Positions 2,715-34,317 of a stretch of DNA of 41,625 nt are shown in pieces (positions within the stretch are counted from its first letter, which is position 1; every line of letters starts with the position of its first letter). The position numbers and the translations under genes are program-made. This stretch comes from a virus (Duplodnaviria > Heunggongvirae > Uroviricota > Caudoviricetes), in the IMG/VR virus record IMGVR_UViG_2529293039_000011. The stretch is one strand, 5' to 3'. The notes below the pieces were generated by a model. The model saw only the letters and a list, made by a program, of their open reading frames with translations, was not told where the DNA came from and searched no databases.

Positions 2715-5233
<2,519 letters not shown>

Positions 5234-9202: not shown

Positions 9203-10135
9203 CTATTTATTTTTCAATAAATACATTTGGTTATGTGTCTTTAGGTGGGGGCGTGAGGCAAAGAAAACCCGGCGCTGAGGCCGGGGTATGCATTTATGGT
9301 TTTTTTGGTCGTGCTTTGCTAGGGCTTTATGAGTTTTCTTAATGCTGCTTCTAACTTTCTGAATTTTTTCTTGGGAAAGTTTTATGTTTTCAGGGGCTGT
9401 TCCAGTGTTAGAAATCATTACATTGCGAACAGATCTCCCTACGGTCTCAGCAGCATTCTCTAGTTGAGACTGTCCCTTCAGGTTCTGGTTTCTGATTCTT
9501 GCTTCTGTCTGTGTAATTCTGAATATATTGGCCGCGAGCTCTTCGCTTCCCATGAAGTCAAGCATCGTTCCATCTTTTTTAGTTAGGCCTTTTCGAGCTT
9601 TCAACTGTGAGAGATTCATATTGTACATCCCACGGTAGCCCGCATTTTGAAATAGACCATAGTCGACTACTCCGTGTTTATGGGCTACATGACTGAGAGT
9701 TTTCTCTCTAGATGTAATCTCGCCACGCAAATAAACTCGATTAACTGCGTCATGGTTATGATATGTAGTGTGTATTTCTGCTGCGAGCCCAGCAAAATAA
9801 GCTTGTGCATTTGCAACTTTTTGATTGCTGATGTCACCATTCATTACAATCAGATAACAAGCGAAACGAGTTAATTTAAAGTCATTTTTCGCATTTTCTG
9901 AAGGCATCTGGATGAAGTTATCGTATACAGGGATATCGAGGCTCACACATACAGATGTAGCTTTGTTAATGGCTTTCAATATCTGATCCATGCCATTATA
10001 TCCAAGCATCATCGCTAAATCAGATGCAAACCAATAGGTAACACCGTTTTCTCTAGCGAAATCATCAAATGTTAACTGTGATGTGTCATCGAAAACAGTA
10101 ATTTGCCTACTCATATCACACCCGAACTTACTCAT
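9203..10135 (-). CDS. Hypothetical protein (310 aa) in the rexAB position, with a weak Bro-N/KilA-N-like N-terminal signature
   Basis: ATG preceded by AAGGGA; motif VTYWFASDLAMMLGY resembles the Bro-N W-F-x-A-x-D-x-x-x-x-L-G-Y signature; immediately downstream of cI on the same strand. Confidence 0.6.
   Translation of the reverse strand: MSKFGCDMSRQITVFDDTSQLTFDDFARENGVTYWFASDLAMMLGYNGMDQILKAINKATSVCVSLDIPVYDNFIQMPSENAKNDFKLTRFACYLIVMNGDISNQKVANAQAYFAGLAAEIHTTYHNHDAVNRVYLRGEITSREKTLSHVAHKHGVVDYGLFQNAGYRGMYNMNLSQLKARKGLTKKDGTMLDFMGSEELAANIFRITQTEARIRNQNLKGQSQLENAAETVGRSVRNVMISNTGTAPENIKLSQEKIQKVRSSIKKTHKALAKHDQKNHKCIPRPQRRVFFASRPHLKTHNQMYLLKNK
9259..9285 (-). terminator. Candidate intrinsic terminator of the cI-side immunity transcript, embedded in the last codons of the 310-aa ORF
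   Basis: Minus-strand hairpin CCCGGC-CTCAGC-GCCGGG followed by TTTTCTTTG; T-run also on the plus side. Confidence 0.45.
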
Positions 10136-11671: not shown

Positions 11672-12570
11672 ATGACAAATACAGCAAAAATACTCAACTT
11701 CGGCAGAGGTAACTTTGCCGGACAGGAGCGTAATGTGGCAGATCTCGATGATGGTTACGCCAGACTATCAAATATGCTGCTTGAGGCTTATTCAGGCGCA
11801 GATCTGACCAAGCGACAGTTTAAAGTGCTGCTTGCCATTCTGCGTAAAACCTATGGGTGGAATAAACCAATGGACAGAATCACCGATTCTCAACTTAGCG
11901 AGATTACAAAGTTACCCGTCAAACGGTGCAATGAAGCCAAGTTAGAACTCGTCAGAATGAATATTATCAAGCAGCAAGGCGGCATGTTTGGACCAAATAA
12001 AAACATCTCAGAATGGTGTATCCCTCAAAACGAGGGAAAATCCCCTAAAACGAGGGATAAAACATCCCTCAAATTGGGGGATTGCTATCCCTCAAAACAG
12101 GGGGACACAAAAGACACTATTACAAAAGAAAAAGAAAAGATTATTCGTCCGAGAATTCTGGCGAATCCTCTGACCAGCCAGAAAACGATCTTTCTGTGGT
12201 TAAACCGGATGCTGCAATTCAGAGCGGCAGCAAGTGGGGAACAGCAGAAGACCTGACCGCCGCAGAGTGGATGTTTGACATGGTGAAGACCATCGCGCCA
12301 TCAGCCAGAAAACCGAATTTTGCTGGGTGGGCTAACGATATCCGCCTGATGCGTGAACGTGACGGACGTAACCACCGCGATATGTGTGTGCTTTTCCGCT
12401 GGGCCTGCCAGGACAACTTCTGGTCCGGTAACGTGCTGAGTCCGGCCAAACTCCGCGACAAGTGGACCCAGCTCGAAATCAACCGTAACAAGCAACAGGC
12501 AGGCGTGACAGCCAGCAAACCAAAACTCGACCTGACAAACACTGACTGGATTTACGGGGTGGATTTATGA
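11672..12570 (+). pseudogene. O: Replication initiator O, interrupted by a 1-nt frameshift inside the origin (track ORFs 11672..12256 and 12082..12570)
   Basis: N-terminal frame MTNTAKILNFGRGNFAGQERNVADLDDGYARL... is lambda O; C-terminal frame ...GVDL ends by overlapping the P start; the span is 899 nt, not a multiple of 3. Confidence 0.75.
12021..12106 (+). repeat. Lambda-type replication origin: four iterons of about 18 bp, followed by an AT-rich tract
   Basis: Tandem repeats TCCCTCAAAACGAGGGAA, TCCCCTAAAACGAGGGAT, ATCCCTCAAATTGGGGGA, ATCCCTCAAAACAGGGGGA. Confidence 0.8.
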
Positions 12571-18849: not shown

Positions 18850-18876
18850 GGCTGCGCATGGCGCGGCCTTTTTTTT
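18850..18876 (+). terminator. Intrinsic terminator downstream of the membrane-protein moron
   Basis: Hairpin GGCTGCGC-ATG-GCGCGGCC followed by TTTTTTTT. Confidence 0.5.
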
Positions 18877-30562: not shown

Positions 30563-30952
30563 ATGATGTTTCTGAAACAGGGCACGTTTAATTATGAAAA
30601 GCAGTCCGTGGTGCTCAGTGAGCTGTCCGGGCTGCAGAGAATTGAATATCTGGCGTTTGTTCAGCAGCGAACGGCAAAGTTTGATGCCGAAGAGGGAGAA
30701 CTGCCGGAGGCTGAACGACAGATTGCTTTTCTGCGGATGGGGATGGATATCAATGCCTGGCTGGTTTCCCGCTCACAGTGGAATGCGGATCAGTCTAAGG
30801 ATGTAGAGACGCTTTGCGCATCCGTTATTACAACATGGTCGTATGATGCCCTGGGTGCGGGGGCGGAGATGGTTCTGTCGCTGAGCGGTATGGGGACCAT
30901 TGATAATGCCGGGGATGATGAGCATGAGGCGCTGACGCCGGAAAAGTCCTGA
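30563..30952 (+). CDS. G: Tail assembly chaperone G (129 aa; track ORF begins at 30524)
   Basis: Start at ATGATG after GGTGGAGAAC; MMFLKQGTFNYEKQSVVLSELSGLQRIEYL resembles lambda gpG. Confidence 0.85.
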   Translation: MMFLKQGTFNYEKQSVVLSELSGLQRIEYLAFVQQRTAKFDAEEGELPEAERQIAFLRMGMDINAWLVSRSQWNADQSKDVETLCASVITTWSYDALGAGAEMVLSLSGMGTIDNAGDDEHEALTPEKS

Positions 30953-31290
30953 CGCGGGAAATGCAGTTTGTCATGCGGCTTGCCCGGGAGTTCCGGCGGG
31001 CAGACTGGCGGCGGATGCTGTCGGAAATGTCGGCCACTGAGCTTGGTGAGTGGGGCGATTATTTCCGGATGCAGAGCTTCAGTGATGTGTGGATGGATGC
31101 GCAGTTTGCCTCGCTGAAGGCATTGATCGTGAGAATGGTGTCCGGCAGCAGTGATGCTGCGGTGGCTGATTTCAGCCTTTTACCGGAAGAGAACGGGATA
31201 CCGGAGCGAACGGACGAAGAACTGATGCATCTTGGGGAAGGTATTTCCGGAGGTGTGCGTTATGGACCAGATAGCCAACCTGGTCATTGA
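30928..31290 (+). CDS. T: T-frame segment, probably expressed as a G-T fusion by -1 ribosomal frameshift near the end of G
   Basis: The -1 frame is open from 30928 through the G stop and continues to 31290; candidate slip site CCGGAAAAG at 30938..30946. Confidence 0.55.
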   Translation, partial: GADAGKVLTREMQFVMRLAREFRRADWRRMLSEMSATELGEWGDYFRMQSFSDVWMDAQFASLKALIVRMVSGSSDAAVADFSLLPEENGIPERTDEELMHLGEGISGGVRYGPDSQPGH

Positions 31291-34200
31291 TTTGGGGATT
31301 GATGCGGCAGAGTTTAAAAATGAAATCCCCCGTATCAAAAACCTTCTGAATGGTGCAGCCAGCGATGCAGAACGGTCTTCTGCCCGTATGCAGCGTTTTA
31401 TGGAGCGTCAGACTCAGGCCGCCCGGCAGACAACGCAGGCGGCTTCTTCGGCTGCAACAGCCGCATCCGTCCATGCGCAGACGGTGGAGAAGAACGCACA
31501 GGCTCATGAACGCATGGCCCGCGAGGTGGAGAAAACCCGCCAGCGCATGGAGGCGCTGAGCCAGAAAATGCGCGAGGAACAGGCGCAGGCCATGGCTCTG
31601 GCGGAGGCTCAGGATAAAGCGGCTGCTGCGTTTTATCGTCAGATTGACAGTGTGAAACAGGCCAGTGCGGGGCTGCAGGAATTACAGCGTATTCAGCAGC
31701 AGATCCGACAGGCCAGAAACAGTGGCGGGATTGGTCAGCAGGATTATCTGGCGCTGATTTCTGAGGTTACGGCGAAAACCCGTGTTCTTACACAGGCTGA
31801 GGAAGAGGGTACCCGACAGAAAGTGGCGTTTATCCGTCAGCTTAAAGAGCAGGCAACCCGCCAGAATCTTTCATCTTCTGAGTTGCTTCGTGCTAAGGCT
31901 GCCCAGCTGGGGGTAAGCAGTGCTGCAGAAGTGTATATCCGCAAAATGGAGCAGGCAGGAAAAGCCACGCATTCGCTGGGTCTGAAAAGTGCAGCGGCCC
32001 GCCAGGAGATAGGCGTTCTGATAGGTGAACTGGCCCGCGGCAATTTAGGGGCGCTGAGGGGATCCGGGATAACGCTGGCTAACCGTGCCGGATGGATAGA
32101 CACACTGATGTCACCGAAAGGCATGATGCTGGGCGGGGTTATTGGCGGTATTGCCGCAGCTGTCTATGGTCTGGGTAAAGCCTGGTATGACGGTCAGAAG
32201 GAGGGGGAAGAATTTAACCGCCAGCTGTCGCTGACGGGGCATTATGCCGGAGTCACTGCCGGGCAGCTGTGGACGCTCAGTCGTGCTATTTCCGGGAATG
32301 GTATCACGCAACATGCTGCAGCCGGTGCGCTGGCTCAGGTGGTGGGGAGTGGTGCATTTCGTGGAAACGATATCGGTATGGTGGCGAGAGCTGCCGCACA
32401 GATGGAGCGATCGGTTGGCCAGTCGGTCAGCGATACCATAAGTCAGTTTAAGCGGCTGAAGGATGATCCTGTAAATGCCGCGAAGGCTCTGGACAATGAG
32501 CTGCATTTTCTTACTGCCACTCAGCTTGAGCAGATACGCGTCCTTGGGGAACAGGGGCGGTCCAGTGATGCGGCACGGATAGCCATGTCTGCACTGGCAG
32601 AGGAAACCGGTCGGCGTACTGCGGATATTGATAATAACCTCAATGCGCTGGGCAGTACGCTGAAGTATCTGTCTGATTTATGGAGTCGTTTCTGGGATGC
32701 GGCCATGAATATTGGTCGTGAAGACTCGCTGGATGAACAGATTTCCGCTTTACAGGAGAAAGTGTCGCGGGCGAAAAGACTCCCCTGGACGGCATCATCT
32801 TCTCAGGTTGAGTACGATCAGCAGCGTCTTAACGAGCTTCAGGAAAAAAACGCCAGAAGGATTTGCAGGATGCAAAAGAGCAGGCAGAGCGGAATTATCA
32901 GGAGCAACAGAAACGCCGTAATGCTGAAAATGCTGCACTGAACCGGATGAATGAAACGGAAGCAGCACGACATCAGCGTGAAATTGCGCGTATTAATGCC
33001 ATGCAGTACGCCGATCAGACTGTCAGGGATGCGGCGATACAACGTGAAAATGAACGTTACGAGAAAGCCCTGGCATCCGGTAAGAAAAAAACACGCGAAA
33101 CCCGTAATGATGAGGCCACCCGGTTATTGCTGCAGTACAGTCAGCAACAGGCACAGGTGGAAGGACAGATTGCTGCTGCCAGACAGTCAGCAGGCATTGC
33201 CACGGAAAGGATGACAGAAGCGCATAAACAGCTTCTGGCTCTGCAGCAGCGCATCAGCGACCTGGACGGGAAAAAACTGACGGCAGATGAAAAGAGTGTG
33301 CTGGCCCGTAAAGATGAACTGATTCAGGCACTGACGCTGCTGGATGTAAAACAGCAGGAGCTTCAGAAACAGACGGCACTCAACGAGCTGAAGAAAAAAA
33401 CAATTCAGCTGACCAGTCAACTGGCTGAAGAAGAGCGTGCTCAGCGTCAACAACATAATCTGGATATCGCCACGGTGGGTATGGGTGATCAGCAGCGGCA
33501 GCGATATCAGGTACAACTGAGTCTTCGTCAGAAATACCAGCAACAGCTGGAGCAGTTGAGGCGGGATAGTGAGCAGAAAGGGACATATAACACGGATGAC
33601 TACAGAAAGGCCGAGCAGGCGCTGACGGAGAGCCTGAACCGACAACTGAATGAGAATCGCCGTTACTGGCAACAGCTTGAAATTGCTCAGGGTAACTGGA
33701 AAAACGGAGTCCTGCGTGCACTCCAGAATGTCACTGAGAATGCGGATAACACAGCCTGGACAGTGGAACAGTTGTTCACGTCTGCGTTCAGTAGCATGAG
33801 TGACTGGCTGGCGACATTCTGTACTACAGGCAAACTCAATTTCAAATCTTTTACTTCTTCTGTGCTGTCAGATATGTCCAGAATCATGGCTCAGATAGCT
33901 TTAATGAAAGCGGTAAAAGGCATTGCTTCCGCGCTGCCTTTTGATTTTGTAGCCAATGCTGATGGCGGTGTTTATCAGTCGGCTGATTTGAGTCGCTACA
34001 GTGGCACGGTGGTTAACCGTCCGACGTTTTTTGCTTTTGCAAAAGGCGCGGGTGTGATGGGGGAAGCGGGACCTGAAGCCATTCTGCCATTGCGTCGTGG
34101 TGCTGACGGTAAGCTGGGGGGGGTGGCGGATATTGGGGGTTCAGGTATGGCGATGTTTTCCCCGCAGTACAACATCGAGATCAATAACGATGGCACGAAC

Positions 34201-34317
34201 GGGCAGATAGGTCCGGCTGCCCTGAAGGCGGTTTATGACCTCGGGAAAAAAGCGGCAGCGGACTTTATGCAACAGCAGGCCCGTGATGGTGGTCGGTTAA
34301 GTGGAGCATATCGGTAA
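31262..34317 (+). pseudogene. H: Tail tape-measure protein H, interrupted by a 1-nt frameshift at an A7 run (track ORFs 31232..32941 and 32863..34317)
   Basis: N-terminus MDQIANLVIDLGIDAAEF and C-terminus INNDGTNGQIGPAALKAVYD... parallel my recollection of lambda gpH; the span is 3056 nt, not a multiple of 3. Confidence 0.8.

Follow-up and report, generated by a model that had tools for sequence, protein, structure and literature searches.

Normal tails in phage lambda depend on a full-length tape-measure protein, gpH, and viable relatives such as cdtI, mEp460 and others all carry a full-length H gene. Known lambda gpH-type counterparts of the gene described here include gp13 of phage cdtI (YP_001272526) and the tape measure of Escherichia coli strain DCE7 (WP_015987604), both of which are intact. 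We analysed a stretch of 41,625 nucleotides, referred to below as the window (IMG/VR record IMGVR_UViG_2529293039_000011), which matches E. coli DEC2D contig AIFC01000014.1 (assembly GCA_000249215.2) at 100% identity and belongs to a lambdoid prophage whose integrase adjoins torS. Its H gene shares with the cdtI and DCE7 genes the same domains, the same position after G/T and before M and L, and, once repaired, the same length of 1018 residues; unlike them, it is interrupted after codon 529 by a one-nucleotide contraction that leaves seven adenines (A7) where intact homologs have eight (A8). The A7 allele is probably genuine, a slippage mutation passed on by descent in a defective prophage.

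The closest complete relative of the window is the torS-site prophage of enteropathogenic E. coli (EPEC) E2348/69 (NC_011601.1, about 1043517..1084300), which we take to be the element named PP2 in the literature. Both prophages lie beside torS, are near-identical between 5.5 and 35 kb, where about 24 substitutions separate them, and carry H as a frameshifted pseudogene. Unlike the window, the E2348/69 prophage retains A8 in H, an intact replication gene O and a T8 run in a BRO-family gene, has no IS21-family insertion sequence (IS) and differs in the J region. Its H has a deletion of its own, one nucleotide in a non-homopolymer context (CAG[A]CGGC), at the equivalent of window position 33373 (about 35423 of the compared NC_011601.1 stretch). 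All four E2348/69 assemblies match the H query with identical span and score, which is consistent with the NC_011601.1 deletion, and RefSeq annotates both H and J of E2348/69 as 'frameshifted'.

The split tape-measure gene and its repair

Two open reading frames (ORFs) on the plus strand, 31232..32941 and 32863..34317, overlap in different frames across H, as a first-pass annotation of the window had reported. H starts at the ATG of position 31262, in agreement with the annotations of phage cdtI and E2348/69, and the resulting span of 31262..34317 measures 3056 nucleotides, which is indeed not a multiple of three. The same annotation was right in attributing the frame change to an A7 run but placed it at 32843..32849, one base too far to the left; read directly from the window, the run occupies 32844..32850 on the plus strand in the context ...GAGCTTCAGG AAAAAAA CGCCAG..., and the codons around it are ...CTT CAG GAA AAA AAC GCC....

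As encoded, the 5' part of H (31262..32941, plus strand) comprises 529 native codons, 30 out-of-frame codons (NARRICRMQ...MLH) and a stop at 32939..32941, giving a protein of 559 residues that is devoid of the C-terminal 489 residues. The 3' part continues in the -1 frame over 32851..34317 on the same strand, with an ORF at 32863..34317 that gene finders call as 32947..34317 (456 residues). The Pfam domain TMP_2 lies on the 5' piece (E=1.4e-49), and Tape_meas_lam_C (E=2.4e-22) and TMP_4 (E=4.1e-17) lie on the 3' piece. Because both pieces carry tape-measure domains, the split in the window sequence is not a chance pattern of ORFs.

Restoring one A gives 3057 nucleotides and a single ORF of 1018 residues that reads ...LNELQEKKRQKDLQDAKEQ... 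across the site, which agrees with the earlier prediction that A8 would make the gene continuous with the second frame. The suggested comparison with intact homologs likewise supports this repair: the repaired protein differs at one residue from the intact tape measures of cdtI and DCE7, and it is identical to the repaired H of E2348/69. The window H is thus a disrupted member of the lambda-type gpH family, in which family domains and gene order are present and a continuous full-length ORF is absent.

The origin that we favour is that replication slippage shortened A8 to A7 in H of the torS-site lambdoid prophage of the DEC1/DEC2 lineage, and that descendant strains inherited the shorter run. 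For the DEC collection, we presume that DEC1/DEC2 carries an EPEC O55:H6-type serotype and lineage label. Translation would then leave the H frame after residue 529 and end 30 codons on, so that the C-terminal half, with TMP_4 and the lambda-type C-terminal domain, would stay separate from the N-terminal half. If H works as lambda gpH does, loss of the full-length ruler protein would leave the prophage without normal tails, and the truncation would be expected to abolish tail assembly. Together with a frameshifted O and an IS21-family insertion, the lesion would mark the prophage as defective and decaying.

Inherited mutation or undercalled homopolymer

Recurrence of A7 in related strains is observed directly. 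The allele is present in DEC1D, DEC2B, DEC2D, another DEC assembly (AIFD01), NJJB01 and six Logan read-set assemblies, possibly all from one or two projects. Exact-protein look-up found the 559-residue fragment encoded on eight contigs, including DEC2D (AIFC01), DEC2B (AFJB01), AIFD01, NJJB01 and the Logan assemblies of SRR490664, SRR094159 and SRR094168, and the 456-residue 3' fragment added DEC1D (AIEY01), SRR070670 and SRR094160. The separate runs SRR490664 and SRR070670 are both 100% identical to the window, A7 included. The exact 559-residue protein is deposited in GenBank for E. coli DEC2B and DEC2D (EHU38384/EHU47496/EHU62120), and the entries for the truncated H and O proteins are labelled DEC2B, DEC2C and DEC2D; these three names come from the database, while the remaining DEC names used here are inferred from accession order. 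Among IMG/VR contigs, A7 occurs in one, matching DEC2B, and A8 or another sequence in six. The truncated H protein clusters under an A8-protein representative, so further A7 variants could stay hidden.

We infer that A7 is present in the DNA and not only in the reads. Two features of a genuine pseudogene, further inactivating lesions and a lesion common to related strains, were both found. The main rival, possible but less likely, is that H is in truth intact, with A8 in the DNA, and that the 2010-12 DEC read sets undercall the 8-base run, as pyrosequencing-type chemistry does, with the error passed on to all assemblies, including those of Logan. Sequence alone cannot separate a real mutation from a systematic undercall. 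The two alternatives named in the first-pass annotation, a homopolymer miscall and real slippage in a decaying prophage, are still the two that stand, with the evidence leaning towards real mutation.

Several observations weigh against a real mutation and are those expected of an undercall. With the one exception of NJJB01, every A7 sequence belongs to a DEC assembly or to an SRA run numbered in the ranges of 2010-12, so that the allele is confounded with data source, and it was seen in no complete or long-read genome. A 76-nucleotide query spanning the H site was scanned against 5426 complete E. coli genomes, and an exact A7 match was found in 0 of the 1817 matching records; 1810 of these match at 95-99%, and among the matches listed the spans are 77 nucleotides, that is, A8. 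Metagenome contigs gave A7 in none and A8 in three, and a scan of GTDB representative genomes for A7 returned none. All six of the 'partial' tape-measure proteins read from the same 90% cluster are A8 (EKKRQKD) and are ended by contig ends. The nearest long-read relative, UFZD01000005.1, has A8 and an intact 1018-residue H, and its second tail-module copy is A8 although it shares its single-nucleotide polymorphism (SNP) haplotype with the A7 contig of SRR094168. Sporadic extra homopolymer indels occur in DEC2B, AIFD01 and DEC1D (A7 to A6 at 33394 and 33091, C6 to C5 at 36451). Compared with E2348/69, H shows no decay besides the missing base, and each of the three indels that the window has in the near-identical region shortens an A/T run, in two cases an 8-mer.

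These three are exactly the one-base deletions of the window in that region: T8 to T7 at 9300..9306, A6 to A5 at 12129..12133 in O, and A8 to A7 in H. Homopolymer runs of 8, 7 and 6 number four, eight and forty-one in the E2348/69 prophage, and the contractions fall on two 8-mers, no 7-mer and one 6-mer. Both contractions analogous to that in H, T7 in the BRO-family gene and A5 in O, are found in modern complete genomes, and this occurrence in finished genomes supports them as real and argues against a general undercall. As a positive control for the scan, the corresponding 76-nucleotide query for the O site gave exact A5 matches in 5 of 1317 matching complete-genome records, from unrelated strains. 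The O allele thus recurs in unrelated complete genomes, whereas the H A7 allele was seen only in DEC1/DEC2-related data.

Other properties of the drafts also favour a mutation carried in the DNA over an undercall. A7 is reproduced in at least ten contigs, read sets or strains, most of them without extra errors, and other 8-mers, as well as 7-mers close by, have the right length in these assemblies; the window itself retains a T8 run at 18869..18876 and a G8 run at 34116..34123. Homopolymers in O and in the BRO-family gene are called differently between strains. The calls are strain-specific, because AIEW01 has A6 in O while AIFB01 (DEC2C), DEC2D and AIFD01 have A5. The DEC assemblies are also without random homopolymer noise: AIFB01 equals the window at 100% over 9.4 kb, and AIFD01 differs from it over 12 kb only by substitutions and by T8 in place of T7. 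Finally, one IMG/VR contig, of adjacent genome ID and of the same batch as far as ID numbering indicates, calls A8 in an identical 29-nucleotide context. Frameshifts in H are frequent among older draft assemblies. One H copy, in IMGVR_UViG_2529293038_000015, has A8 and a different one-nucleotide deletion (GGGGCGGTCC to GGGGC-GTCC) at the equivalent of window position 32559.

The window carries a rare J allele that is present in only four contigs, two of them longer than 1 Mb. One of these is UFZD01000005.1 (5.1 Mb, GCA_900448265.1), which has the identical J allele and four substitutions relative to the window over 10.9 kb; the second contig of more than 1 Mb was grouped with it as similar. 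In GCA_900448265.1, an assembly of long-read type, contig UFZD01000005.1 holds the tail module twice, near 0.31 Mb and near 1.65 Mb; both copies have an intact H and exceed 99.8% identity to the window. Where a tail module is present twice, short-read contigs may be a collapsed or mosaic consensus of the two copies, and gene conversion between prophages becomes possible. The association of A7 with many SNP haplotypes was considered as proof of a single old mutation; this argument is weakened by the two near-identical tail-module copies, since short contigs may represent collapsed consensus.

A7/A8 fails the four-gamete test against positions 33166 and 34122, which further weakens the argument for a single old mutation. 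The G/T variation at 34122 is synonymous (GGG/GGT, codon 954), and V954 of cdtI and DCE7 is due to position 34121. The G at 34122 creates the G8 run at 34116..34123 and is shared with E2348/69 and UFZD01 copy 2, with T in most other relatives.

The consequences differ between the two explanations. If A7 is real, the DEC1/DEC2 EPEC lineage would hold a torS-site prophage that is unable to make tails and, with O also broken, unable to replicate as a phage; this would be a second, independent tape-measure lesion besides that of the sister E2348/69 prophage, illustrating relaxed selection on the structural genes of resident prophages. If A7 is an artefact, frameshifts at A/T runs of at least 8 in 2010-12 drafts would need checking before pseudogenes are scored, and EHU47496 and the entry for the partner fragment should become one GenBank record. 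Whether a pseudogenising mutation or a draft miscall, the H lesion is an ordinary homopolymer frameshift, nothing new in kind, and matters little beyond annotation.

The slippery heptamer at the lesion

The A7 mutation generates the heptamer A_AAA_AAC at 32845..32851, exactly in the zero frame (codons GAA|AAA|AAC), and a -1 slip on this heptamer would enter the downstream H frame. An identical heptamer, likewise in the correct frame, forms the insA-insB' -1 site of IS1; unlike that site, the window heptamer arose by mutation and lacks conservation, and nothing indicates that it is used. We take IS1 to be the IS cluster that has been characterized with this motif. A7 could accordingly be real but leaky or switchable, with -1 ribosomal slippage, or slippage of RNA polymerase or during replication, restoring some full-length tape measure. 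Such slippage would leave the tail module down-tuned or reversibly silenced, not dead, and reversion to A8 would be possible. A ribosomal slip would yield a K530N protein, and transcriptional slippage the wild type.

For A_AAA_AAC, -1 frameshifting has been proven in an IS cluster without an established stimulator, and motifs that lack a stimulator act 2- to 10-fold above a background of 0.055% in E. coli, or at about 0.1-0.5% (PMC4066793). Low-level compensatory frameshifting at homopolymer indels has also been documented (PMC5009743). At such rates, the expected yield of leaky slippage in H is well below 1%. No significant RNA structure was found downstream, where the fold of 32838..32940 has an energy of -19 kcal/mol and shuffled sequences average -19.5 (z=0.18). 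All other homologs have H in frame, so the split layout is not conserved, and the broken O, the IS insertion and an IS inside H of DEC1D give no sign of selection keeping the module working. Because downstream structure and conservation are lacking and other lesions are present, we regard a leaky or switchable H as very unlikely.

Far less probable still is that H has evolved a programmed recoding of the kind known from the neighbouring G/GT frameshift. The only points that speak for it are the coincidence of a slippery heptamer and its nearness to the genuine -1 arrangement of the region, which is that of G/T just upstream of H. The two-ORF layout occurs in 0 of the 1817 complete-genome records, and single-ORF H genes are found in viable phages (cdtI, mEp460, PhiR55_1 and others), in DCE7 and in UFZD01. 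We therefore rejected programmed recoding in H, as the split is not conserved and the heptamer has no stimulatory structure.

Further lesions and neighbouring genes

The second A-run frame error claimed in the first-pass annotation, in replication gene O (11672..12570, plus strand), holds in comparison with E2348/69: the run at 12129..12133 is A5, with A6 in the intact gene. The window encodes 154 native and 40 out-of-frame residues, with the Pfam domain Phage_rep_O on the 5' piece, and the repaired protein of 299 residues is identical to the O protein of E2348/69. The run sits in an A-rich stretch just after iteron-like repeats. O is intact, with A6, in AIEW01 (probably DEC1B) and in CP164306.1. 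One copy of the A5 allele, within a prophage remnant of E. coli O157:H7 ATCC 43888, is annotated as 'frameshifted'; as in the window H, an A run has lost one base there, which disables an essential phage gene, and the prophage has further lesions.

A third homopolymer contraction, beyond those in H and O, is the change from T8 to T7 at 9300..9306 (minus strand), at the 3' end of a BRO-family gene on the minus strand (9203..10135), where it alters the C-terminus and gives a protein of 310 residues compared with 280 in E2348/69. The T7 allele is also present in AIFA01, AIEW01 and ALNX01 (probably DEC2A, DEC1B and E851/71) and in AIFB01, while AIFD01 and E2348/69 have T8. The complete chromosome CP164306.1 also has the 310-residue allele; the prophage that carries it there lies at torS and has the same immunity region.

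In the early region, an IS21-family element of 1953 bp (2880..4832, plus strand) encodes IstA (340 residues) and IstB (260 residues), is flanked by ATTGA(T) repeats and interrupts a homolog of an E2348/69 hypothetical gene. The same type of IS lies inside H of DEC1D at codon 176 (equivalent to window 31787), in addition to A7, and the 1086 bp retrieved from this copy are identical to window 3748..4833. Because H has been broken independently and unambiguously in DEC1D, by the IS, and in E2348/69, by a different deletion, it is dispensable in this prophage family. The DEC1D insertion and the E2348/69 deletion together establish relaxed selection on H in the family, which also speaks for A7 as a real mutation.

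H is flanked by lambda-type tail genes, with the major tail gene V, G and T upstream and M, L, K, I and J downstream. The tail assembly chaperone gene G (30566..30952, plus strand; Pfam Phage_TAC_2) is annotated as gpG in E2348/69. It is followed on the same strand by the tail assembly gene T (30961..31290; Pfam Phage_tail_T), which is in the -1 frame relative to G and whose 3' end overlaps the start of H. The frame relation of G and T (30938..30952 / 30961..31290) is that of lambda, and the end of G reads CCG GAA AAG TCC TGA, without the lambda G_GGA_AAG heptamer. The sole candidate slip site between the two genes is (G_)GAA_AAG / A_AAG at 30940..30946. Elsewhere in the prophage, the window has an 8-bp insertion (GGCTGTCA) relative to E2348/69 near position 21570, between a Rha-like gene and a small-terminase-like (DUF1441) gene.

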